A stretch of 64,000 bases of DNA. Origin: an uncultured delta proteobacterium (GTDB lineage: Bacteria > Myxococcota > Myxococcia > Myxococcales > Myxococcaceae). The stretch is from NCBI GenBank assembly GCA_963771175.1, contig CAVYSY010000040.1, positions 224,001 to 288,000 of the forward strand, given 5' to 3'. The notes under the pieces are model-generated. The model saw only the letters and a program-made list of their open reading frames with translations, was not told the origin of the DNA and made no database searches. This document shows positions 6,739 to 22,729 of the stretch, piece after piece. The translations under genes and the position numbers were made by a program. How positions within the stretch are numbered: the first letter of the stretch is position 1; every line of letters starts with the position of its first letter.

Positions 6739-9700
6739 TCAGGGCGTCACGGACATGATGGTGCCGGCGCGGGTGTTGTTGTCCTCGAGGAGCTCGGGGC
6801 GGCTGTTGCCCGGGTCGGCGGCGGCGCCCAGGTACCAGGCGCCAGCGGTGGGGACCCACGCGGAGACGCTCTGCGAGAGCGTCTGGCACTGCCCGGGGTT
6901 GAGGTAGCTGGCGTACAGCATGCCCAGGGGCTGGTCCGTGGTGGGGCCCGGCGGGTTTGGCGGGATGATGGTGGCGTCCGAGGACAGGTACAGCTCCACG
7001 TCCGCGGAGTCACCCATGGTGCCCTGGTTGCACACCGTCACGGTCGCGGTGAATTGCTTGCCCATCGCCACACTCGAAGGGCCGACCACCGAGGTGATGA
7101 TGAAGTCCGCCTTGTTGCCCACGCCCATGCGGGTGCCGGCGCGGGTGTTGTTGTCCTCAATCAGCTCGGGGCGGCTGTTGTACGGGTCGGCGGCGGCGCC
7201 CAGGTACCAGGCGCCCTCGGAAGGCACCCACGCGCTGACGTTCTGCGAGAGCGTCTGGCACTGCCCGGGGTTGAGGTAGCTGGCGTACAGCATGCCCAGG
7301 GGCTGGTCCGTGGGGGGGCCCGGCGGAGTGGCCGGGGTGATGGTGGCGTCCGAGGACAGGTACAGCTCCACGTCCACGGAGTCACCCATGGTGCCCTGGT
7401 TGCACACCGTCACCGTGGCGGTGAACTGCTGGCCCGGCGTGACGCTGGCGGGGCCCGTCACCGAGGTGACGATGAAGTCGGCCTTGTTACCCACGCCCAT
7501 GCGGGTGCCGGCCAGGGTGTTGTTGTCCTCAATCAGCTCGGGGCGGTTGTTGTACGGGTCGGCCACGGCACCCAGGTACCAGGCGCCCTCGGAGGGCACC
7601 CACGCGGAGACGCTCTGCGAGAGCGTCTGGCACTGCCCGGGGTTGAGGTAGCTGGCGTACAGCATGCCCAGGGGCTGATCCGTGGGGGGGCCCGGAGGCG
7701 TGGCCGGGGTGATGGTGGTGTCCGAGGACAGGTACAGCTCCACGTCCACGGAGTCGCCCATGGTGCCCTGGTTGCACACCGTCACGGTCGCGGTGAACTG
7801 CTGGCCCGGCGTGACGCTGGCGGGGCCCGTCACCGAGGTGACGATGAAGTCGGCCTTGTTGCCCACGCCCATGCGGGTGCCGGCCAGGGTGTTGTTGTCC
7901 TCAATCAGCTCGGGGCGGTTGTTGTACGGGTCGGCCACGGCACCCAGGTACCAGGCGCCCTCGGAAGGCACCCACGCGGAGACATTCTGCGAGAGCGTCT
8001 GGCACTGCCCGGGGTTGAGATAGCTGGCGTACAGCATGCCCAGGGGCTGGTCCGTGGGGGGGCCCGGAGGCGTGGCCGGGGTGATGGTGGTGTCCGAGGA
8101 CAGGTACAGCTCCACGTCCGTGTAGTCGCCCATGGTGCCCTGGTTGCACACCGTCACGGTCGCGGTGAACTGCTGGCCCGACGTGACGCTGGCGGGGCCC
8201 GTCACCGAGGTGACGATGAAGTCGGCCTTGTTGCCCACGCCCATGCGGGTGCCGGCCAGGGTGTTGTTGTCCTCAATCAGCTCGGGGCGGTTGTTGTACG
8301 GGTCGGCGGCGGCGCCCAGGTACCAGGCGCCCTCGGAAGGCACCCACGCGCTGACGTTCTGCGAGAGCGTCTGGCACTGCCCGGGGTTGAGGTAGTTGGT
8401 GGCCAGGAAGCCCAGGGGCTGATCCGTGGGGGGGCCCGGAGGAGTGGCCGGGATGATGGTGGCGTCGGAGGACAGGTACAGCTCCACGTCCGTGTAGTCG
8501 CCCATGGTGCCCTGGTTGCACACCGTCACCGTGGCGGTGAACTGCTGGCCCGGCGTGACGCTGGCGGGCCCCTTCACCGAGGTGACGATGAAGTCGGCCT
8601 TGTTGCCCACGCCCATGCGGGTGCCGGCCAGGGTGTTGTTGTCCTCAATCAGCTCGGGGCGGTTGTTGTACGGGTCGGCCACGGCGCCCAGGTACCAGGC
8701 GCCCTCGGAAGGCACCCACGCGCTGACGCTCTGCGAGAGCGTCTGGCACTGCCCGGGGTTGAGGTAGCTGGCGTACAGCATGCCCAGGGGCTGATCCGTG
8801 GGGGGGCCCGGCGGAGTGGCCGGGGTGATGGTGGCGTCCGAGGACAGGTACAGCTCCACGTCCGCGGAGTCGCCCATGGTGCCCTGGTTGCACACCGTCA
8901 CCGTCGCGGTGAACTGCTGGCCCGGCGTGACGCTGGCGGGCCCCTTCACCGAGGTGACGATGAAGTCGGCCTTGTTGCCCACACCCATGCGGGTGCCGGC
9001 CAGGGTGTTGTTGTCCTCAATCAACTCGGGGCGGTTGTTGTACGGGTCGGCCACGGCGCCCAGGTACCAGGCGCCCTCGGAAGGCGGCCATGCGGAGGCG
9101 CTCTTCGAGAGCGTCTGGCACTGCCCGGGGTTGAGGTAGTTGGTGGACAGGACGCCCAGGGGCTGATCCGTGGGGGGGCCCGGAGGAGTGGCCGGGGTGA
9201 TGATGGCGTCGGCGGACAGGTACAGCTCCACGTCCGTGTAGTCGCCCATGGTGCCCTGGTTGCACACCGTCACCGTGGCGGTGAACTGCTGGCCCGACGT
9301 GACGCTGGCGGGCCCCTTCACCGAGGTGACGATGAAGTCGGCCTTGTTACCCACGCCCATGCGGGTGCCAGCCAGGGTGTTGTTGTTCTCGATGAGCTCG
9401 GGGCGGTTGTTGTACGGGTCGGCCACGGCACCCAGGTACCAGGCGCCCTCGGAAGGCGGCCACGCGGAGACGCTCTTCGAGAGCGTCTCGCATTGCCCGG
9501 GGCTGAGGTAGTTGGTGGACAGGAAGCCCAGGGGCTGATCCGTGGGGGGGCCCGGCGGAGTGGCCGGGATGATGGTGGCGTCGGAGGACAGGTACAGCTC
9601 CACGTCCACGGAGTCACCCATGGTGCCCTGGTTGCACACCGTCACGGTCGCGGTGAACTGCTGGCCCGGCGTGACGCTGGCGGGCCCCTTCACCGAGGTG

Positions 9701-9843
9701 ATGACGAAGTCCGGACCCGAGCCCGCGGCCTGCTCCGCGCTTCCCAGCGAGGAACTCGCGTCATTCCCAGGTTGCCCACACCCGCCCAGTCCCATCAGCA
9801 TCACGGTGCTTACGATCCCGGTTTTCCAGGCTCTCCAGTTCAT
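6739..9843 (-). CDS. Lipoprotein made of eight tandem CARDB-like (Ig-fold) domains
   Basis: Lipobox LGGC; repeats of DFxVTSVxGP...TVTVCNQG...VELYLS.D...GAWYLGAVADP.N...EL.EDNN, typical of CARDB domains; intact 1038-aa ORF (start taken at MNWRAWK). Confidence 0.9.
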   Translation of the reverse strand: MNWRAWKTGIVSTVMLMGLGGCGQPGNDASSSLGSAEQAAGSGPDFVITSVKGPASVTPGQQFTATVTVCNQGTMGDSVDVELYLSSDATIIPATPPGPPTDQPLGFLSTNYLSPGQCETLSKSVSAWPPSEGAWYLGAVADPYNNRPELIENNNTLAGTRMGVGNKADFIVTSVKGPASVTSGQQFTATVTVCNQGTMGDYTDVELYLSADAIITPATPPGPPTDQPLGVLSTNYLNPGQCQTLSKSASAWPPSEGAWYLGAVADPYNNRPELIEDNNTLAGTRMGVGNKADFIVTSVKGPASVTPGQQFTATVTVCNQGTMGDSADVELYLSSDATITPATPPGPPTDQPLGMLYASYLNPGQCQTLSQSVSAWVPSEGAWYLGAVADPYNNRPELIEDNNTLAGTRMGVGNKADFIVTSVKGPASVTPGQQFTATVTVCNQGTMGDYTDVELYLSSDATIIPATPPGPPTDQPLGFLATNYLNPGQCQTLSQNVSAWVPSEGAWYLGAAADPYNNRPELIEDNNTLAGTRMGVGNKADFIVTSVTGPASVTSGQQFTATVTVCNQGTMGDYTDVELYLSSDTTITPATPPGPPTDQPLGMLYASYLNPGQCQTLSQNVSAWVPSEGAWYLGAVADPYNNRPELIEDNNTLAGTRMGVGNKADFIVTSVTGPASVTPGQQFTATVTVCNQGTMGDSVDVELYLSSDTTITPATPPGPPTDQPLGMLYASYLNPGQCQTLSQSVSAWVPSEGAWYLGAVADPYNNRPELIEDNNTLAGTRMGVGNKADFIVTSVTGPASVTPGQQFTATVTVCNQGTMGDSVDVELYLSSDATITPATPPGPPTDQPLGMLYASYLNPGQCQTLSQNVSAWVPSEGAWYLGAAADPYNSRPELIEDNNTRAGTRMGVGNKADFIITSVVGPSSVAMGKQFTATVTVCNQGTMGDSADVELYLSSDATIIPPNPPGPTTDQPLGMLYASYLNPGQCQTLSQSVSAWVPTAGAWYLGAAADPGNSRPELLEDNNTRAGTIMSVTP
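6742..9714 (-). repeat. Eight intragenic tandem repeats of 372 bp (124 aa)
   Basis: Near-identical blocks recur every 372 nt (shadow ORF ends at 7529, 7901, 8273, 8645, 9017). Confidence 0.97.
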
Positions 9844-9900
9844 GCTCTGTCCCATCCAAGAAAGAAATTTGATGATTGCAGAGAATCACTGTTTTGCTGG

Positions 9901-12077: not shown

Positions 12078-12923
12078 TCAGAAGCCCGCCCAGATGAAGT
12101 CCAGCGTCGGCAGGAAGTCGTTGCTCCGGACGCGGACGCGCTCACTGAAGCCGTCACTGCCCTCGCTCACGCGCGTGGCCCCATGGTCCGCGTTGGCCCA
12201 CAAGACACCGGCGGTGATGCGGCTGTGCTGGAAGACGGCGATGTCGAGACCCAGGTGGGCCGTGACCACGAGCGGGGACACGGTGGCAATGGGCCCCACG
12301 TCCTGACCCGAGACGACGAGGTTGCCCTGGGGCCCGGTGACATGGAGGTTGAGCTCTCCGCGCAGGCGCAGACGGTCGTTGAAGGCATGGTCATACGCGC
12401 CCCCCACCCGCGAGTGGAAGCCCGTGAGCGGCGCCGCGAGCACGAGGTCCAACGGGGTGAGGAAGGAGTTGAGGGGAGTGGCGCTATTGGGTCCGAGCGG
12501 AACGCGGAAGGCCGCATCCGCCTTGAGCGTCCACACATCGTTCGCGAGCACATCCCCCGAGAGCAACAGACCCGCCCTCGGAATCAGCATCCAACCGATG
12601 TCGCTCTGGCTGGTGGCCCAGTTGGGGAAGAAATAGCCCTTCGTCAGACGCAGGGCGAACGTGGGCACCGACAGCCCGGCCTCCGCCGTCAGTCGGAGCG
12701 GCGAGCGCACCAGCGCGAAGCGGGCATCCACATGGGGGGCCATCAAGAAGAGGAGCGGGTGGGTCTGGAGCTCGACCCGGTCGTGGACCGCGATGCGCAG
12801 CGGGTTGAACACGCCCACGCTCCAGGCGCCCCGAGGACCCACGTCCGCGGTGTCCCGGGCGGGCAGGGGTTGGGAGAAGGCGAGGGTGCTTCCCAACAGG
12901 ACGAACAGCAGGACGGCTCTCAT
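12078..12923 (-). CDS. Hypothetical exported protein, probable outer-membrane beta-barrel
   Basis: Signal peptide MRAVLLFVLLGSTLAFS, amphipathic strands, C-terminal LDFIWAGF; ATGA overlap with the upstream EEP gene. Confidence 0.7.
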   Translation of the reverse strand: MRAVLLFVLLGSTLAFSQPLPARDTADVGPRGAWSVGVFNPLRIAVHDRVELQTHPLLFLMAPHVDARFALVRSPLRLTAEAGLSVPTFALRLTKGYFFPNWATSQSDIGWMLIPRAGLLLSGDVLANDVWTLKADAAFRVPLGPNSATPLNSFLTPLDLVLAAPLTGFHSRVGGAYDHAFNDRLRLRGELNLHVTGPQGNLVVSGQDVGPIATVSPLVVTAHLGLDIAVFQHSRITAGVLWANADHGATRVSEGSDGFSERVRVRSNDFLPTLDFIWAGF

Positions 12924-14080
12924 GGCAGCCTCCAGGTACCGGCGACGGGGGCATGGTCGGACAGCCGGCTGGCATCGCTCTGGACCTCGAGACGCCCGGG
13001 GCCCTGGATGACATCGGTCGCCGTCCACACCTCTCCCTTTCGGATGAAGAGGTAGTCCAGCGTGCGGTTCCAGGTGCCGCGCGTCCCCTGCTTGTTCTCG
13101 CTGTCCGGGCCGAGCACCGAGTGCGTGAAGTAGGCCCGTTGGCTCTCCTCACCCACGCCGTAGCGGGCCAGGGATATGAAGGGCTCGAAGTCGTCGTAGA
13201 AGGGCTTCATGACGCTGGGCGTGTAGGGCGGCTGTTCGTACTCGGTGCCCTGGCTGCTCTCGTCCTCGTCCAGGAAGCCCACCAGCCGCAGCTTGCCCTC
13301 GCAGGAGTCGGACGCGCCCGCGGTCGCTTTCTCGTTACACACGGGGGGCAGCTCGTTGAAGTCTCCTCCGAGCACCCAGGGCAGCGTCTCCGCCTGGACG
13401 ACGTCGTGGATCTGTCGGATCTGCTTCTGCTTGGTGCCGTCCCGGTCATACGCCTCGGTGTGCACCACGTATGCGGCGATGGTCCGGTCGCCCAGGTCCA
13501 CCTCGACCCGGCCGATGGCGCGCTTGATGTAGAACGTCGACGTCACCGGATCCTGATCCGTGCGATCCTCCTGCCGGATGCGCTCGGCCTTGGTGATGGG
13601 GTAGCGCGAGAAGATGGCGTTGCCCAGGTTGATACGACCCACGCCCTCGGACGGCACGTAGCGCGAGTCCCAGGTGGACATATAGGCCGCGTAGCGGAGA
13701 TGGGTGTTCTCCAGCAGGAAGCGCACCTGGTCGATGTAGGCGCTGCGCTTCGAGTCGACCTCGATCTCCTCCGTCATGAGGATGTCCGGGTCGTACTCGC
13801 GGATGAGTGCCGCCACGCGCGTGAGGCAGTCCGTCACCTCGGAGGTGGACATCTGGACGCGGTCACCCCAGAAGTCGAACCAGAAGTCGATGCGGCAGGC
13901 TCCGTACTTCACGTTCCACGCCATCACCTTGAGTGAGGTGGGGTTCGCCGCTGGGGCGGGGTGTTCCGCCCGGGCCTTGAACCGCGGGACCTCTTCTCGG
14001 GTGAAGGACAGTGGGTCGGCAACCCATTCGCAACTGGCCAGCAATGGGAGGAGGAGGAGCCAAGGGAGCGATCGTCTCAT
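12920..14080 (-). CDS. Endonuclease/exonuclease/phosphatase (EEP) family lipoprotein
   Basis: Lipobox LASC; LKVMAWNVK, DPDILMTEEI, GNAIFSRYPI, GGDFNE, LDYLF, SDHAPV. Confidence 0.93.
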   Translation of the reverse strand: MRRSLPWLLLLPLLASCEWVADPLSFTREEVPRFKARAEHPAPAANPTSLKVMAWNVKYGACRIDFWFDFWGDRVQMSTSEVTDCLTRVAALIREYDPDILMTEEIEVDSKRSAYIDQVRFLLENTHLRYAAYMSTWDSRYVPSEGVGRINLGNAIFSRYPITKAERIRQEDRTDQDPVTSTFYIKRAIGRVEVDLGDRTIAAYVVHTEAYDRDGTKQKQIRQIHDVVQAETLPWVLGGDFNELPPVCNEKATAGASDSCEGKLRLVGFLDEDESSQGTEYEQPPYTPSVMKPFYDDFEPFISLARYGVGEESQRAYFTHSVLGPDSENKQGTRGTWNRTLDYLFIRKGEVWTATDVIQGPGRLEVQSDASRLSDHAPVAGTWRLP

Positions 14081-14155
14081 GCGGGGCGCGAGGGTACTCC
14101 GACTCCGACTCCGGCGCTCGGAGGGGCGATGATTCCAGCGCGAAAAGGCGAAGGG

Positions 14156-14194
14156 CGCTGCATCGACGCGGCGCGGTGTGAGTACGTCGAGCAC
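14156..14194 (+). repeat. 39-bp stray copy of an internal segment of the immunity gene
   Basis: CGCTGCATCGACGCGGCGCGGTGTGAGTACGTCGAGCAC matches 15103-15141 at 38/39 nt (RCIDxARCEYVEH). Confidence 0.9.
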
Positions 14195-14264
14195 GGCTGA
14201 GCGGGGCTCGGACTCCTCGCATTTCCGCCCACGAATCATGGGAGGGGACATGCCGGACGCGAAG

Positions 14265-14363
14265 GTGGGAGACGGCTTTACCTAAGTCGAGCTCTCGCTC
14301 TTCCAGGTGCTGGAGGGCCTGCGCTACGCCTTCCCCAATGCCTTCAAGGGCCTGGAGCCCCGG
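14265..14363 (+). pseudogene. Glutathione S-transferase C-terminal-domain fragment
   Basis: Translates VGDGFT*VELSLFQVLEGLRYAFPNAFKGLEPR, resembling the GST motif VG..LTY.DLSLFQ..EGLRYAFP, with TAA where Tyr is expected; recognised by eye. Confidence 0.7.
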
Positions 14364-14753
14364 TGGGGACGGGGGCCGCAGCGGCGAGGGCCACGGGGGC
14401 GTGGCGGGGATGGCTCGAAGAAGGACGGGAGCCACTGGCACCACCTCGCCACCAACAAGAACGACATCTCCGGTGCCAACGGCGGCCCGTGGACTCCTGC
14501 CTTCAAGAAGATTTTCGACAAGGCGGGGATGAGCCTGGAGGCGAAGGAGAACCTCGTCTATCTCCAGGGCCACCAGGGCCCGCACCCCGAGGCGTATCAT
14601 GCGGAAATCTTCGACAGGCTCCAGGACGCAACGGAAGATTGCAGGAGTCAGATTGAGTGTCGGAGCAGTCTGGTGAAGGAGTTGGACAAGATTGCAGGAG
14701 AGGTCTGCACTCCTGGCTCATCGCTTCATAAGATTCTCACGAAGAAGCCATAG
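14361..14753 (+). pseudogene. Orphan AHH-nuclease toxin C-terminal domain (5'-truncated copy)
   Basis: Homologous to 16474-16865; HWHHLATNKN...GGPWTP.F...AGM.L...ENLV...GHQGPHPEAYH; no signal peptide or N-terminal domain. Confidence 0.88.
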
Positions 14754-14775
14754 CACCGGAGCACGAGGATCAGAC

Positions 14776-15339
14776 ATGTCCAGATACTTCATGCTTCGTG
14801 ACCACATGAGTTTTCCGGGGCGCTGGGTGCTGGATGGTCCCTTCGATGAGCAGGGAGAGGAGATCGACTCCTGGCAGTTCAAGAAGGGCCGGCGCGTGGA
14901 ACTGGCCGGGGTGGCGTATTTCCCCATGTCGCATCGAGGGTGCGCGCTGGACATCAGCCAGACGGGACTGGGAGTCCCCGTGGTGCATGGCCGGGTGGCC
15001 GACATCCTCGAGCGCCTCTGCGGCCAGGACGTGCAACTCCTGCCAGCCAGGGTGGAGGGGCAGAGCGACTCCTGGTTCATCCTCAACCTGCTGCGAGTCA
15101 TCCGCTGCATCGACGAGGCGCGGTGTGAGTACGTCGAGCACTGGAAGCCCGAGGACAACCGGCCGGACAAGGTGGGGGAGTGCCGCAACGTCCGGGGGCT
15201 GAAGGTGGACCCGGCGAAGATTGGAGATGCCCACATCTTCCGGCCCTGGGGATGGCGCGTGGTCATCCTCGTCTCCGAGCCGCTCAAGCTCGCGCTGGAA
15301 CAGGCGGGCATCACCGGCATGAAGTACATCGAGGCCTGA
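14776..15339 (+). CDS. Imm11/DUF1629-like immunity protein 1
   Basis: Directly downstream of the AHH tip, with GAGGA RBS; motifs DVQLLPARVEG, FILNLLRVIRCIDEARC, LKVDPAKIGDAHIFRPWGW, VSEPLKLALE..GITG. Confidence 0.88.
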   Translation: MSRYFMLRDHMSFPGRWVLDGPFDEQGEEIDSWQFKKGRRVELAGVAYFPMSHRGCALDISQTGLGVPVVHGRVADILERLCGQDVQLLPARVEGQSDSWFILNLLRVIRCIDEARCEYVEHWKPEDNRPDKVGECRNVRGLKVDPAKIGDAHIFRPWGWRVVILVSEPLKLALEQAGITGMKYIEA

Positions 15340-15390
15340 CGACCTCAAGTGACTCGGGTCCTGCCGCGTCGCGTGCTGCCCCTGCGTCAG

Positions 15391-15478
15391 CCCTCGATTC
15401 CGAGCCCTTCCTCGTCGGCGCTCGCCCACCGTGTTGAGCGCGCTGCCAGAACGCAGTGCCGACGCTGGCGTCCACGAG
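15391..15478 (+). repeat. Diverged direct-repeat copy of 17581-17669 (terminator right arm plus last ~10 codons of the beta-barrel gene)
   Basis: CTCGATtCCGAGCCCTTC...GAGCGCGCTGCC-AGAAcGCaGTGCCGaCGCTGGCGtCCACGA aligns with 17581-17669 at roughly 80% by eye; minus strand reads VDASVGTAF versus VGASAGTAF*. Confidence 0.85.
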
Positions 15479-15560
15479 TCAAGAAGCGCCTGGAGGCGAG
15501 GGTGGGACTCACACCGGCAGTAGCTGCCGTCCAGCGGTCGCGGAGGGTATGGAGAGCTCC

Positions 15561-16865
15561 ATGCCTCCGCGAGCGCCCTGGTTGTTTCAACTCGTACTGC
15601 TGGCGACAACGGGCACGGCCCTGATGGCGACGTCGGCGGGAGCGGCCTCCGCACTGTCGAGCAGGATGGTGCAGGTGCGCGAGGTGCCGGGAGGGGTGAG
15701 GCTCCTCTTCGAGCCGCAGGGGAGGGCGGCGGAACTGGAGAAGCTGACGGTGGAGCAGGCGCGCGGAGTGCTGGCCGCGTTCCGCGAGGACTTCGGCCCG
15801 GTGCCGCCCAGCCGACCGGAGCGGGTGGTAGCGCTCGCGGCCGTGGCGTGCGGGGCGGTGGCGTGCGGACCGGGAGAGGAGTGGGAGAAGCGGCTGCGAG
15901 CGGCCTACGTCGCGAGGTACGGAGTGCCGGAGGTGGAGCTGCCGCCGCTGGCGAGCGACAGGCTGGCGGGGGTGTTGAGGCTGTCACCGCGGTACATGAA
16001 GGAGGGGGTGAGGGAAGCAGCGGTGGAGTTGTTCGGAGACCCGCTCTTCCTGGCGGGGGTGTCCACGTCGGTGGTGGCCTATTTCCTGGCGTGGGCAGTG
16101 CCCGAGCCGTTGCTCAGCAAGACGGCGGCGGTGGTGGTGACAGTGGGACTGGTGGCGGCCTTCGGAGTGGCGGAGCTGCACCAACTGGGAGTGGCATGCC
16201 TGAGGCTCTACCGGGAGGCGGAGGCGGCGAGGACGCCCGAGGAGATGGAGAAGGCGGCCGAGCACTTCGGCAAGGCAGTGGGAGGAGTGGCGTTGAGGGC
16301 GCTGGTGATGGCGGCGAGCGCCGGGGTGGCCAAGGGGCTGCCGAAGGTGCCGAAGGGAGGGCTGTGGGAGAGCGTGGCGCCCGCGAGCCAGGCGCTGCCC
16401 GGGGGGCTGACGCTGAGCGTGTCGACGACGGCGCAGGTGGTGGCGGACGGGACGGTGGTGCTGATGGGGGCGGCGGTGGGAACGGGGGCCGCGGCGGCGA
16501 GGGCCACGGGGGCGTGCGGGGATGGCTCGAAGAAGGACGGGAGCCACTGGCACCACCTCGCCACCAACAAGAACGACATCTCCGGTGCCAACGGTGGCCC
16601 CTGGACTCCTGCGTTCGAGGAAATCTTCGCCAAGGCGGGGATGCGCCTGGATGCGAAGGAGAACCTCGTCTACCTCCTGGGCCACCAGGGGCCTCACCCC
16701 GAGGCGTATCATGCGGAAATCTTCGACAGGCTCCGGATCGCAACGGCACGCTGCAAGACGCAGACGGAGTGTCGGAGCATGCTGGTGGAGGAGCTGGACA
16801 AGATTGCAGGAGAGGTCTGCACTCCTGGCTCATCGCTTCATAAGCTTCTCACGAAGAAACCATAG
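15561..16865 (+). CDS. Full-length polymorphic toxin with a SitA-like (PEP..SK) hydrophobic central domain and a C-terminal AHH nuclease
   Basis: N-terminal signal; AWAVPEPLLSKTAA...LYREAEAART.EE.EKAAEHFGK..GG.ALR region typical of myxobacterial SitA5-like toxins; AHH motif; immunity gene follows. Confidence 0.85.
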   Translation: MPPRAPWLFQLVLLATTGTALMATSAGAASALSSRMVQVREVPGGVRLLFEPQGRAAELEKLTVEQARGVLAAFREDFGPVPPSRPERVVALAAVACGAVACGPGEEWEKRLRAAYVARYGVPEVELPPLASDRLAGVLRLSPRYMKEGVREAAVELFGDPLFLAGVSTSVVAYFLAWAVPEPLLSKTAAVVVTVGLVAAFGVAELHQLGVACLRLYREAEAARTPEEMEKAAEHFGKAVGGVALRALVMAASAGVAKGLPKVPKGGLWESVAPASQALPGGLTLSVSTTAQVVADGTVVLMGAAVGTGAAAARATGACGDGSKKDGSHWHHLATNKNDISGANGGPWTPAFEEIFAKAGMRLDAKENLVYLLGHQGPHPEAYHAEIFDRLRIATARCKTQTECRSMLVEELDKIAGEVCTPGSSLHKLLTKKP

Positions 16866-16887
16866 CACCGGAGCACGAGGAACAGAC

Positions 16888-17451
16888 ATGTCCAGGTACT
16901 TCATGCTTCGTGACCACATGAGCTTTCCGGGGCGCTGGGTCCTGAGAAGCCCTGTCGACGAGCAGGGAGCTGAGATCGATTCCTGGCAGTTCGGGGAGGG
17001 GCAGCCCGTGGAGCTGGCAGGTGTTGCGTATTTCCCCATGTCGCATCGAGGGTGTGCGCTGGACATCAGCCAGACGGGACTGGGAGTCCCGGTGGTGCAC
17101 GGCCGGGCGGCCGCCCTCCTCGAGCGCCTCTGCGGCCAGGACGTGCAGTTACTGCCGGCAAGGGTGGAGGGGCAGAGCGACTCCTGGTTTATCCTCAACC
17201 TGCTGCGCGTCATCCGCTGCATCGAGGAGGCGCGGTGTGAGTATGTCGAGCACTGGAAGCCCGAGGACAACCAGCCGGACAAGGTGGGGGAGTACCGCAA
17301 CGTCCGGGGGCTGAAGGTGGACCCGGCGAAGATTGGAGATGCCCACATCTTCCGGCCTTGGGGATGGCGCGTGGCCATCATTGTCTCCGAGCCGCTCAAG
17401 CTCGCGCTGGAACAGGCCGGCATCACAGGCATGAAATACATCGAGGTCTGA
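16888..17451 (+). CDS. Imm11/DUF1629-like immunity protein 2
   Basis: Paralogue of 14776..15339 (17 differences in 187 aa), directly downstream of the toxin. Confidence 0.88.
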   Translation: MSRYFMLRDHMSFPGRWVLRSPVDEQGAEIDSWQFGEGQPVELAGVAYFPMSHRGCALDISQTGLGVPVVHGRAAALLERLCGQDVQLLPARVEGQSDSWFILNLLRVIRCIEEARCEYVEHWKPEDNQPDKVGEYRNVRGLKVDPAKIGDAHIFRPWGWRVAIIVSEPLKLALEQAGITGMKYIEV

Positions 17452-17461
17452 TGACCCTCAC

Positions 17462-17527
17462 CTTTGGCACGCCGTCCCCGCTCTTGTCCGGGTCGCACGT
17501 ATCGCCCAGACCGTCGTGATCTTGGTT
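17462..17527 (-). pseudogene. Thrombospondin type 3 repeat remnant
   Basis: Translates NQDHDGLGDTCDPDKSGDGVPK, fitting the TSP3 pattern DxDxDGxGDxCDxDxDGDGVP; no flanking gene. Confidence 0.55.
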
Positions 17528-17544
17528 TGAATGTCCAGACACCT

Positions 17545-17600
17545 CGAAAAGGCGAAGGGCCCGGAATCGTCGAGGCGTGCCTCTCGATCCCGAGCCCTTC
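17545..17600. terminator. Hairpin terminator between immunity gene 2 and the convergent beta-barrel gene
   Basis: GAAGGGC.CGG.ATCG..GAGGC / GCCTC.CGAT.CCG.GCCCTTC; on the minus strand followed by GCCTTTT. Confidence 0.65.
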
Positions 17601-17637
17601 TCTGTTGGGCTCTTGCCCGCCGCGCCGAGCGCGCTGC

Positions 17638-18438
17638 CTAGAATGCGGTGCCGGCGCTGGCGCCCACGAAGGTGTCGTCCATGTAGCCGCGCCGGAAGCG
17701 CATCAACTCGATGCGCCAGGCCAGCCGCACGTTCGACTCCGAGGACAGCCGCGTGCGGCCCCGGAAGCCCACTCCGTACTGGATGAGCGACTTGATGCCG
17801 TCCACCGGTGTCGCCTTGCCGCCAATCTCCAGCGCGGTGTGCTCGTAGGCGATGCCTCCGCCCGCCTGCGCGTAGAAGCCGTAGTCCTTGCTCTTTCCCA
17901 CGGTCAGCTCGTACGCCGGGGCGATGGTGGCGTAGTGCAGCCGCGTGTCGCCGATGATGAGCTGCGTTCCCTCGCGCATCCCGGCGTACGTGTAGCGCAC
18001 GTCGAACCAGAGCGCCTCGCGCAGCGCCTCCATGTTGAACAGCCGTCCGATCTCCCAGGTGAAGCGGCCTCCCACGGCCGGCAGGAGATCGGCGAACTGT
18101 CCGCGCGGGCTGCTCAGCAGCATCGCGCCCCCGAGCACCTCGAACGCCACGCCCGTGTTCGGGTCGTCCAGGTTCGCCAGCCACTCGGCGTCCTTCTCCG
18201 CGTCTTCCTCCTCGGACACCCGACGGAAATCCTCCGCTACGTCCTCGTGTCCGGCGCGGTTGAAATCCTCCGGCGCGTCCTCGGGCCCGGCCTGGCGGCG
18301 GGGCTTCTCCTCCTCGGGCTTCTCGTCATCCGGATAGGCATAGGGCGTGTCGTCGTCCTGCGCGAACGCGGGCGGGGCGAGGGCAATCCCTCCCAGCAGG
18401 CAGGGCAGGAGCCAGGAATACACGGCGGCGGTCTTCAT
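17638..18438 (-). CDS. Hypothetical outer-membrane beta-barrel protein with an acidic N-terminal linker
   Basis: Signal peptide ending AFA, acidic disordered stretch, alternating strands, C-terminal GTAF; ATGA overlap with upstream gene. Confidence 0.78.
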   Translation of the reverse strand: MKTAAVYSWLLPCLLGGIALAPPAFAQDDDTPYAYPDDEKPEEEKPRRQAGPEDAPEDFNRAGHEDVAEDFRRVSEEEDAEKDAEWLANLDDPNTGVAFEVLGGAMLLSSPRGQFADLLPAVGGRFTWEIGRLFNMEALREALWFDVRYTYAGMREGTQLIIGDTRLHYATIAPAYELTVGKSKDYGFYAQAGGGIAYEHTALEIGGKATPVDGIKSLIQYGVGFRGRTRLSSESNVRLAWRIELMRFRRGYMDDTFVGASAGTAF

Positions 18439-20853: not shown

Positions 20854-20908
20854 CGTTTCCACGCTCTCTATGGTGCCGCCCTTCCAACTCATCTGTACAG
20901 GCGGTGTC

Positions 20909-22729
20909 ATGGCGGTCCCGTTCATCACCGAGGTCAAGCGTACTCACACCTGCGGGCAGCTCACCAAGGCCAACATCGGCGAGGAGGTCGTCCTCTTCGG
21001 CTGGGTGCAGAACCGGCGAGACCACGGCGGCGCGGTCTTCATCGATCTGCGAGACCGTGAGGGTCTCACGCAGGTCGTCTTCGAGCCGGACATCGCCAAG
21101 GAGGCGCACGAGCTGGCTGGCCAGCTGCGCCTCGAGTACTGCATCGGCATCAAGGGCAAGGTCGTCTCGCGCGGCACCCAGGTCAATCCCAAGATCAAGA
21201 CGGGTGAGATCGAGATCAAGGCCACGGACCTGACCATCTTCAACCGCTCCGAGCCCACGCCCTTCCTCGTCGAGGACAACATCGACACGGCGGAGGAGAA
21301 GCGTCTGGCGTACCGCTACCTGGATCTGCGCCGCGCGCCGCTGCAGCAGTCGCTGATGACGCGCTCGAAGATGAACGCGATCACCCGCTCGTACATGGTG
21401 GGCAACGGCTTCCTGGAGCTGGAGACGCCCTTCATGGGCAAGTACACCCCGGGTGGCGCGCGCAACTTCCTGGTGCCCAGCCGGCTCAACCCGGGCAAGT
21501 TCTACGCCCTGGCCGAGAGCCCCCAGCTCTACAAGCAGCTCTTCATGGTGGCGGGCTTCGACCGCTACTTCCAGATCGTCAAGTGCTTCCGCGACGAGGA
21601 TCTGCGCCTGGACCGGCAGCCCGAGTTCACGCAGGTCGACGTGGAGATGAGCTTCGTCACCCAGGACGACATCTTCACCATCATCGAGGGGCTGCTGAAG
21701 CGGCTGTGGAGGGAGGTGCTCGGCGTCGACATCCCCACGCCTTTCTGCGGATGAACTTCGACGAGTCCATGGCGAAGTACGGCAACGACAAGCCGGACCT
21801 GCGCTTCGGGCTGGAGCACGTGGTGCTCACGGACCTCATCCGCCAGCACGGCGCCGCGGGCGGCGTGCCGATGATGTTCGAGGCGGTGGAGCAGGGCGGC
21901 ATCGTCAAGGCCATGGTCGTCCCCGCGGACAAGCCGATGAGCCGCGCGGAGAGCGACAAGCTGGAGGACTTCGCCAAGCAGAACGGGCGCCAAGGGCCTC
22001 GCGCGCGCCAAGGTGGGCGAGGGCGGTGAGTGGACCCAGTCCCCGCTGTCCAAGACGATTACTCCGGCGCTGCGCCTGGCCATCAACCAGGCCTGCGACG
22101 CGAAGACGGGCGACCTCATGCTGTTCCAGTTCGGCCGCGAGTCGCTGGTGCACACGGTGATGGCGAACCTGCGCGTGCACGTGGCCAAGAAGCTCGGCCT
22201 CATCCCCGAGTACGGCAGCGGCGGCGTGTGGAAGTTCCTCTGGGTCGTCAACCCGCCCCTCTTCGAGTACGACGAGGAGACGAAGACGTGGGCGGCGGCG
22301 CACCACGCCTTCACCCGGCCGCACGACGAGGACGTGCCGTACCTGCTGACGGATCCGGGCCGCGTGAAGTGCCACCGCTACGACGTGGTGCTCAACGGCT
22401 TCGAGATCGGCGGCGGCTCCATCCGTCTGCACGACCCCAAGGTGCAGGCGGAGGTGTTCAAGGCGCTGGGCATCTCGGACGAGGAGGCGCGGGAGAAGTT
22501 CGGCTTCCTGCTGGACGCGCTCAAGTTCGGCGCGCCGCCGCACGGCGGCATCGCGCTGGGCATGGACCGGCTGGTGATGCTGCTCACGAGCGCCGAGTCC
22601 CTGCGCGACGTCATCCCGTTCCCCAAGACGAAGACGGGCACGGACCTGATGACGGGCGCGCCGGGCGACGTGGACGAGCGGCAGCTGCGCGAGGTCCACG
22701 TGCGCCCCACGCCGCCGCCGCAGAAGTGA
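20909..22729 (+). CDS. aspS: Aspartate--tRNA ligase, probably the non-discriminating Asp/Asn type (frameshifts near 21745 and 21985)
   Basis: RTHTCG, GWVQNRRDHGG, YRYLDLRR, SPQLYKQL, CFRDEDLR.DRQPEFTQ.D.E, YGNDKPDLRFG, EIGGGSIR, GAPPHGGIALGMDR. Confidence 0.98.

Follow-up and report, generated by a model that had tools for sequence, protein, structure and literature searches.

Tandem AHH-nuclease/Imm11 cassettes in a myxobacterial genome and the copies of host DNA that bracket their relatives

Phages and ICEs integrate at att sites in the 3' ends of genes, leaving a duplicated gene end and a restored host gene. Restriction-modification genes have been described to insert with a long target duplication, for which break repair was proposed as the cause (Furuta, Abe, Kobayashi 2010, PMC2853133). 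In myxobacteria, sitAI loci number 25-80 per genome, and loci of the SitA5/SitI5 type are spread by mobile elements and prophages (PMC8546572); for the origin of sitAI loci outside prophages, we found no explanation in the accessible literature. Here, we analyze a window of 64,000 nt from an uncultured delta proteobacterium (Myxococcaceae; GCA_963771175.1, contig CAVYSY010000040.1, positions 224,001-288,000 of the forward strand), a soil myxobacterium whose assembly (G000) comprises 9.8 Mb and is 82% complete. All positions are window coordinates, 1 being the first letter. The locus was searched in 40 relatives, the closest of which (G011) has one cassette at this site, and the window was compared with contigs of two public sequencing runs, X20 and X3.

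Two cassette copies and a patchwork scar

Both cassettes of the locus (Table 1) encode AHH (PF14412) and Imm11 (PF07791) in profile searches, and positions 14361-15344 and 16474-17456 share 91.5% identity in a repeat of about 1.1 kb that takes in the toxin tip and the Imm11 gene and runs into the 3' flank. The orphan AHH tip agrees with that of the full toxin in 97/113 amino acids and the two Imm11 proteins agree in 170/187, with the same spacer upstream. The second copy of the host gene end, put at about 80% identity in the preliminary description, is likewise present (15393-15477 against 17583-17669, 81.6% over 87 nt); in a wider comparison of relatives, H' is 83.5% identical to H and 85.9% to G011. 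The full cassette is thus bracketed by 87-nt direct repeats, above the 30-bp criterion for insertion of the restriction-modification type with long target duplication.

Table 1. Features of the cassette locus, in window coordinates
Feature	Position	Strand	Basis
EEP-family gene, left flank	12920..14080	-	PF03372
Isolated 16-nt copy, left arm of hairpin	14141..14156	+	genome-wide count; X20 and X3 contigs
39-nt internal piece of Imm11 gene	14156..14194	+	97% to 15103-15141, 92% to 17215-17253
Glutathione S-transferase (GST) gene fragment, in-frame stop at start	14266..14359	+	ORF = GST_C_3
AHH nuclease tip of the orphan, without leader or escort	14361..14753	+	PF14412, E 8.6e-21
Imm11 gene of the orphan, intact	14776..15339	+	PF07791
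Unrelated patch, at position of G011's left arm and loop	15355..15390	.	alignment
H', second copy: right arm and last ~10 barrel-gene codons, stop codon broken	15393..15477	+	81.6% identity
Leader plus full-length toxin gene (start ATG 15561), with SitA5-like escort and AHH tip behind a signal-like N terminus	15478..16865	+	
Imm11 gene of the full cassette	16888..17451	+	PF07791
Extra spacer, ~80 nt, missing in G011 and behind orphan	17458..17539	.	alignment
H, imperfect hairpin, likely terminator of convergent operon	17545..17604	.	fold
Conserved gene ending in Phe, putative outer-membrane barrel (label only)	17638..18438	-	conserved in genus

The orphan's 3' flank is colinear with the 3' end of G011's single cassette, the left arm being replaced in place by the patch of about 35 nt; neither this patch (15355-15390) nor the extra spacer (17458-17539) has a second copy in the genome. 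Because H' is the tail of the 1.1-kb repeat and lies where G011 keeps an intact hairpin, the orphan is, judged by sequence, a truncated tandem copy and not an insert between terminator halves. The orphan had initially been placed between the two arms of a split, broken second terminator. The repeats behind that reading are real, but the right arm and gene end belong to the longer repeat, and what follows the left arm is an Imm11 piece and a GST scrap.

The left arm itself is, as first reported, identical to 17545-17560 in 16/16 positions, and the 9.8-Mb assembly holds only these two copies at 0-1 mismatch (0.006 expected). A common dispersed repeat, the circumstance that would have undone the claim, is ruled out for the exact 16-mer, although H belongs to a loose family of four similar hairpins in the genome (six pattern matches at four places). 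Among the matches listed from a metagenome scan of at least 120 loci with a 19-nt arm pattern, two were similar hairpins, none of them at this locus. H folds with a z of -1.7 here and -3.3 in G011 and was missed by a consensus terminator scan; no paired attC cores were seen by eye in the hairpins, judged against the integron consensus. The barrel gene has no Pfam or NCBIfam match. At 14141, the arm begins a patchwork scar common to both public runs up to 14200: it is joined over 1 shared base to the 39-nt Imm11 piece, followed by about 70 nt of unplaced DNA and the GST fragment, and only then does the orphan come. The GST fragment is 79-89% identical at the nucleotide level to genes of other genera, with matches in 13/120 family genomes; tblastn of its own assembly (82% complete) matched the fragment itself alone, with no intact source.

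The full toxin combines a C-terminal AHH nuclease domain with a downstream Imm11 immunity gene, as SitA5-type toxins do, and matches the SitA5 escort profile NF050093 at 82.3 bits, and at 83.2 bits in the search of the whole genome, under the cut-off of 160 and over positions 134-258 of 262 only; 19 matches elsewhere in the genome exceed the cut-off. A lipobox Cys was not found in it, the first Cys being residue 97, and a paralogue on C38 has an early Cys. On its sequence, the toxin is SitA5-like, and a role in kin discrimination is putative for a protein with no lipobox and a score under the SitA5 cut-off. A TraA profile search gave no match in the 82%-complete assembly, nor in any control. 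Integrase and transposase domains were absent from the 50 of 73 candidate window frames scanned and from 11 further frames, in line with the early remark that none is nearby, and contig C40 has no tyrosine recombinase (PF00589) match. The genome encodes Ku.

Could the arrangement be an artefact of an error-prone assembly? The AspRS gene of the window is broken over three frames, and no public run contains half of the stretch's words or a single piece across it. Yet contiguous contigs of X20 (12500-14200) and X3 (13873-14200) include the arm with the Imm11 piece, the GST piece is likewise found in X20, an X20 contig of depth 31.6 spans 15448 with an H'-type variant, and the cassette copies differ by 9%. 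We consider mis-assembly most improbable. Another X20 contig, from 17422, includes the spacer of about 80 nt. X20 retains the left arm, but in it 14363 is connected to the leader of the toxin (15478) across an unread stretch; its cassette depth is about 80-150 vs 34-37 in the flanks, an excess that other loci may supply. This leader, the contig over H' and the depth count in favour of the doubling discussed below.

Probable origin of the doubled unit

We think it somewhat probable that recombination and break repair doubled the unit, no dedicated recombinase being involved, and that the upstream copy then lost its leader and escort. The repeat unit would consist of the leader, toxin, immunity gene, hairpin and, from the convergent host gene, the final ~10 codons. 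An illegitimate joint would have created the doubled unit, homologous recombination would afterwards expand or contract it, and short-homology deletions would leave orphan immunity genes and scars such as the 16-nt arm, the 39-nt Imm11 piece and the GST piece. At the joint 15477|15478, the end of the host gene meets the conserved left boundary of the cassette with no shared bases, and the homology of G011 and X3 to the window begins at this same boundary, 15478; the 5' joint of the orphan, which begins at ~14361, has 3 shared bases. Repair of double-strand breaks, which these nucleases may themselves provoke, would be the likely driver, by analogy with what was proposed for restriction-modification genes. 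The kept Imm11 may protect against a near-cognate toxin allele.

The two copies of G000 are 91.4% identical to each other vs 86.2 and 84.3% to G011's copy at this site, and G011's own two copies are likewise nearest to each other (89.6%). The 9% divergence of the window copies is patchy, however, a pattern that an old duplication and the import of a different strain's allele explain equally well. In such an import, of the kind proposed for T6SS arrays of Vibrio, a foreign cassette with its barrel end would have entered by homology on one side and illegitimately on the other (homology-facilitated illegitimate recombination), and the resident allele would survive as the orphan. H' shares a Val codon with the barrel genes of G006 and G014 at a place where H encodes Ala, and the scar contains a GST piece for which this assembly has no source, but that source may be unassembled because the assembly is 82% complete. 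Import is rather improbable in our estimate, as the within-genome copies group together and, in the accessible part of the work on Vibrio (PMC5361080), the new pair has its orphans on the downstream side, whereas here the orphan lies upstream.

For the doubling, we infer the order of events at the window locus, since no empty site was found there among the 40 relatives searched. The comparison of orthologous loci, from which empty sites had been expected, found the EEP and barrel genes adjacent only in G000 and G011, and in 9/9 relatives examined the EEP gene's upstream neighbour differs from the window beyond ~14105-14135.

Bracketed cassettes at other sites

The window locus is a decayed example, and others are cleaner. 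Related cassettes elsewhere are bracketed by 27-116-nt copies of the host flank. A cassette or control gene end counted as bracketed when the 150 nt following its stop codon recurred upstream with a score >=40; 98 cassettes were scored and 12 skipped, 11 passed and 2 were removed as non-bracketing downstream repeats, the same rule reducing the control from 2 to 1. By this measure, 9/98 cassettes are bracketed vs 1/300 control gene ends, the loci being top BLAST matches among which kin are counted though not independent. The bracketed cassettes spread over 7/33 site clusters, two of the seven sites being kinase-like genes, a multi-copy family, and 89/98 cassettes lack a bracketing repeat above the threshold; H' fell outside the test's 2-kb downstream range. 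A first, array-level test at score >=40 gave 6/77 vs 4/400, with 3 of those 6 at the polA site.

At that site, a cassette follows polA and is flanked by a 27-nt repeat of the polA end; it occupies the interval to within 0-20 nt on either side. Among 18 genomes, the site is filled in 12, empty in 5 (3 read as sequence, 2 from coordinates) and unresolved in 1; it is contiguous and empty in 6/6 genomes of genus g37 and in further, outgroup genera. All of this at polA may go back to a single ancestral event. The G001 cassette is bracketed by 55 nt at a site that is empty in G011 and G009, and in G009 and G013 host-gene fragments lie between tandem cassettes. The recQ site was ruled out as a clean filled/empty pair, its native downstream DNA being different. 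Gene-end-restoring recombination, as originally proposed, is thus supported for the family by the polA and 55-nt sites and by the enrichment, but not for the window locus, which has no empty site in the genomes searched.

Because copies of host DNA bracket them and no integrase was seen, DNA-break repair is the likely route by which these cassettes insert and multiply. Going further, they might be self-propagating, recombinase-free mobile units whose own nuclease breaks DNA, with repair copying the cassette into gene ends or terminator hairpins with long target duplications, and with the repeats driving amplification, orphans and loss; we hold this to be doubtful. If it were true, the kin barcodes of myxobacteria would be written by a restriction-modification-like life cycle, not by prophages alone.

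Part of the original idea survives if the duplication is assigned to the whole array instead of the orphan: the first cassette would have entered at the terminator of the barrel gene and doubled the left part of that terminator, the 16-nt arm being a remnant of this upstream copy, and the array would have been amplified between the copies. The order of arm and then Imm11 piece is the expected one, three joints at the locus fall within or next to the hairpin, and the geometry at polA is the same, the duplicated 27 nt being the left arm and loop of a hairpin complete only downstream. This history nevertheless seems unlikely to us: no genome shows a cargo-free adjacency of EEP gene and hairpin, the arm is missing from G011, where a lipoprotein gene lies instead, the polA hairpin folds weakly (z -0.85 and -1.44), and 2/5 of the folded duplicated segments, those of the recQ and kinase sites, have no hairpin (z +1.4 and +0.6). 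The hairpin as a universal target is unsupported by the same 2/5.

Site-specific att integration, with a recombinase of the host or of a phage, or a RAYT-type hairpin transposase, acting in trans, would likewise restore host gene ends by duplication, and the genome has 8 PF00589 matches, 2 of them full length. It is nonetheless very unlikely: the duplicated segments range from 27 to 116 nt, are unrelated between sites and have no evident common sequence or conserved core, a linked integrase was not found, the polA cassette fills its interval almost completely, and searches of viral contigs gave 0 matches to the polA repeat and 1 weak match to an Imm11 query.

Relation to known systems

How, then, do break-repair insertion and doubling compare with what has been described? 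Phage and ICE integration at att sites differs in having an integrase and a common core, neither of which was seen here, where the cargo is two genes. Vibrio cholerae T6SS orphan immunity arrays (Kirchberger 2017, PMC5361080), and the Rhs/CDI orphan modules cited there, resemble the locus in integrase-free array growth, with the old toxin truncated and its immunity gene kept; here, by contrast, the orphan lies upstream of the full copy and host flank lies within the repeat, and the accessible part of that paper describes no target duplication. SitA5/SitI5 loci (PMC8546572, as far as accessible) share the N-terminal escort, the AHH tip, an immunity gene behind the toxin, the presence of many loci in one genome and a partial escort-profile match, but differ from the window toxin, which has no lipobox Cys and scores below the cut-off.

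The closest parallel is the restriction-modification system, as given in the accessible part of its description (PMC2853133). Common to both are a nuclease with a protective gene, no mobility gene, empty sites in relatives, long variable direct repeats that often cross a start or stop codon, amplification between repeats and a link to rearrangement. The family described here carries a secreted-type polymorphic toxin with Imm11 instead, and the 27 nt at polA are under the 30-bp criterion. The window locus falls outside this class because no empty site was found for it among the 40 relatives; other loci of the family do have empty sites (polA, 5/18; the 55-nt site, G011 and G009), and no linked mobility gene was seen in the window frames scanned or at polA, where the interval is all cassette. 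The arrangement, at first thought new, is not new as a kind of mechanism, since it has been described for restriction-modification genes (PMC2853133, in its accessible part); our literature search found no report of insertion with long target duplication for these AHH/Imm11 toxins. The filled and empty polA and 55-nt sites extend this mode beyond restriction-modification genes to include interbacterial nuclease toxins and, with their long duplications, give precise junctions and therefore make it testable.

Gene-end copies at the window locus

Contig C40, on which the window lies, belongs to an assembly (G000) of 9.8 Mb in 58 contigs that is 82% complete. Between an EEP (PF03372-family) gene and a convergent gene it carries two cassettes of an AHH nuclease toxin (PF14412) and an Imm11 immunity gene (PF07791), the upstream one a truncated orphan. 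The toxin's nearest named homologues are Archangium proteins; the convergent gene's product, labelled 'beta-barrel' in the preliminary description, gave no match in Pfam and NCBIfam searches. The exact 16-nt repeat of the hairpin's left arm is borne out, at 14141 and 17545, and a common dispersed repeat is ruled out: the arm has only these two copies assembly-wide, also with one mismatch allowed, with 0.006 expected from base composition. A second gene-end copy likewise exists (15393-15477, 81.6% identical to 17583-17669), but not as a free-standing repeat, as it continues a 986-nt repeat (91.5% identity) spanning the toxin tip and Imm11. The window contains no linked recombinase, and the claim of no integrase or transposase nearby held: mobility domains were absent from the 50 of 73 candidate window frames scanned and from 11 further frames. 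Elsewhere in the window (6739-9855), an M4 peptidase adjoins a predicted lipoprotein whose eight CARDB repeats are nearly identical.

Cassette features in the window and at two other sites
Feature	Location	Strand	Remark
EEP gene	12920-14080	minus	left flank
Orphan AHH tip + Imm11 gene	14361-15339		between EEP and convergent gene
Full toxin + Imm11 gene	15561-17451		between EEP and convergent gene
Conserved convergent gene ('beta-barrel')	17638-18438	minus
polA cassette	L200:3656-5700 (G000 contig C25, 65656-67699)		bracketed by perfect 27-nt duplication
Nested duplications	L227:3173-5838 (G001)		outer 72 nt and inner 55 nt, enclosing small gene + cassette

The proposal that the orphan was inserted between two terminator arms does not survive comparison with the closest relative, G011, whose locus, split over two contigs that each end within the Imm11 gene, runs from EEP through a predicted lipoprotein (310 aa), a single full cassette and about 15 nt to an intact hairpin and the barrel end. 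With the three 3' ends aligned, the orphan's 3' flank is colinear with that of this single cassette: the bases after the stop are identical, a patch of about 35 unrelated nt stands where G011 has the left arm, and the right arm and gene end follow. On this alignment, the left arm was replaced in place. The left cassette boundary is constant at 15478, the preceding DNA differing in G011 and in public run X3; the G000 joint between this boundary and the host gene end has zero shared bases. The G000 copies are 91.4% alike, the G011 pair 89.6%, and copies of the two genomes 84-87%. The second close copy in G011 (L032:4840-6814) lies at an unrelated site and begins at the upstream gene's stop codon.

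Downstream of the arm at 14141 come 39 nt from inside Imm11, about 70 bases without an assigned origin and a GST fragment. The top matches of this fragment (79-89%) are in other genera (13/120 family genomes sampled). This arm fits the scar of an older third copy; it would also fit as what is left of the first target duplication, on balance an unlikely origin. Through an extra base at about 14403, which may be an assembly error, the GST fragment and the AHH tip share one reading frame, a 148-aa ORF (14307-14753) that has no signal peptide.

Four public runs were compared as contigs, the locus being spanned by no single piece. In X20, one piece covers 12500-14200 with 12 differences and has extra DNA at 14200, a separate contig includes 15448, with a variant, and depth is about 80-150 over the cassette vs 34-37 over the flanks. 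X3 reaches 14200 too, with extra DNA there, and X1 diverges at 14117. Because X20 and X3 contigs carry such pieces, the scar and the second gene-end copy are not assembly artefacts. As X20 joins 14201-14363 to 15478 (letters between the joints unread), the simplest origin of the G000 orphan is loss of the stretch between 14363 and the toxin linker, with three bases shared at the joint. Single-base indels of the orphan and gene-end copy may be assembly errors, since the nearby AspRS gene (20870-22729) is broken over three frames, which suggests indel errors in the assembly.

Presence/absence variation bounded by the repeats was not found at this locus: among 40 relatives, EEP-barrel adjacency occurs in G011 only, with no cargo-free site. 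No such cassette adjoins the barrel's downstream neighbour in 16 of 17 loci, and the DNA upstream of EEP is unlike the window in nine of nine relatives compared. On this comparison, the window locus is a lineage-specific junction.

Duplicated host ends at other sites

For the window, the proposed reading is wrong in its central detail; the general idea that recombination restores gene ends draws support from better examples elsewhere. The cleanest, with empty sites in relatives, is on contig C25, where a cassette begins directly 3' of the stop of a gene that we take, from a translated motif, to be polA; the copy of the gene's end lies 18 nt past the Imm11 stop. Across 18 genomes of the genus, the site is filled in 12, empty with one copy in five (three read as sequence, two inferred from coordinates) and unresolved in one. 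Because it is empty and contiguous in 6/6 genomes of another genus and also in further genera, the filled state is derived; the filling may have been a single event. In other species, the downstream copies keep the hairpin by paired changes.

In G001, a cassette sits between 55-nt repeats, and G011 and G009 have this site cleanly empty. The outer gene-end duplication enclosing this repeat has an empty site in G017, G004, G016 and G013. Tandem cassettes in G009 and G013, separated by 116-nt and 59-nt pieces of adjacent host DNA, respectively, are the closest parallel to the window's second gene-end copy. A recQ-end duplication in G012 was rejected as a filled/empty pair, having no clean empty site. 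Further arrangements include tandem cassettes on G000 contig C38 (98476-102500), where the upstream copy's escort region is patched with pieces of a different AHH tip, in the same style as window 14141-14360; six same-strand cassettes plus one inverted at L180 (G008), a hotspot common to 12/87 loci; and, at L258 (G012), an upstream kinase-like gene whose promoter region and first ~20 codons recur directly after the Imm11 stop.

The 150 nt past each Imm11 stop were searched for a second local copy (score 40 or more) at loci picked from top BLAST hits, with gene ends as controls. Such copies accompany 11 of 98 cassettes vs 2 of 300 control gene ends, and bracket upstream in 9/98 vs 1/300 (Fisher p 2e-5, overstated because related genomes and the same sites recur). 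The 87 loci form 33 site clusters, seven with bracketing, two of them with multi-copy kinase-like genes; most of the 98 cassettes have no repeat at this score. In the window, as at polA, the upstream copy holds the left hairpin arm, and the hairpin is whole only downstream; recQ and kinase repeats fold without a hairpin, and folding scores are modest.

Proposed break repair and known systems

The repeat geometry and the joints are observed, as are, at two other sites, both the filled and the empty state. Break repair would make the joint that duplicates the host flank, homologous recombination would multiply or remove the unit, and short-homology deletions would yield orphans and scars, with the toxin nuclease as the putative source of breaks. 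Ku is encoded in G000, which is compatible with this model and counts as no evidence for it.

Against SitA features taken from the available part of PMC8546572, the toxin is SitA5-like and by test not a SitA5 member (82 bits vs a cut-off of 160, no lipobox). Across the G000 assembly, 19 matches exceed the cut-off for the SitA5 escort and Imm11 has 12 relatives at E 1e-30 or better; TraA has no match in this incomplete (82%) assembly. Such duplications are not described in the accessible portions of PMC5562445, PMC12077131 and PMC10047993, and our literature searches yielded no account of target duplication at toxin-immunity loci of myxobacteria; Vassallo and Wall 2019 and Vassallo 2020 may bear on the subject.

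Orphan formation in the window resembles that of Vibrio immunity arrays, as excerpted from PMC5361080. There is also a likeness to restriction-modification insertion with long target duplication, for which the consulted part of PMC2853133 describes long variable repeats that often cover a start or stop, the lack of a mobile gene, amplification of what lies between the repeats and breakage as proposed cause. By the empty-site test of this class, the window locus falls outside it, the 55-nt site falls within it and polA does so except in length; so far as that part of the account goes, the cassette family works the same way.
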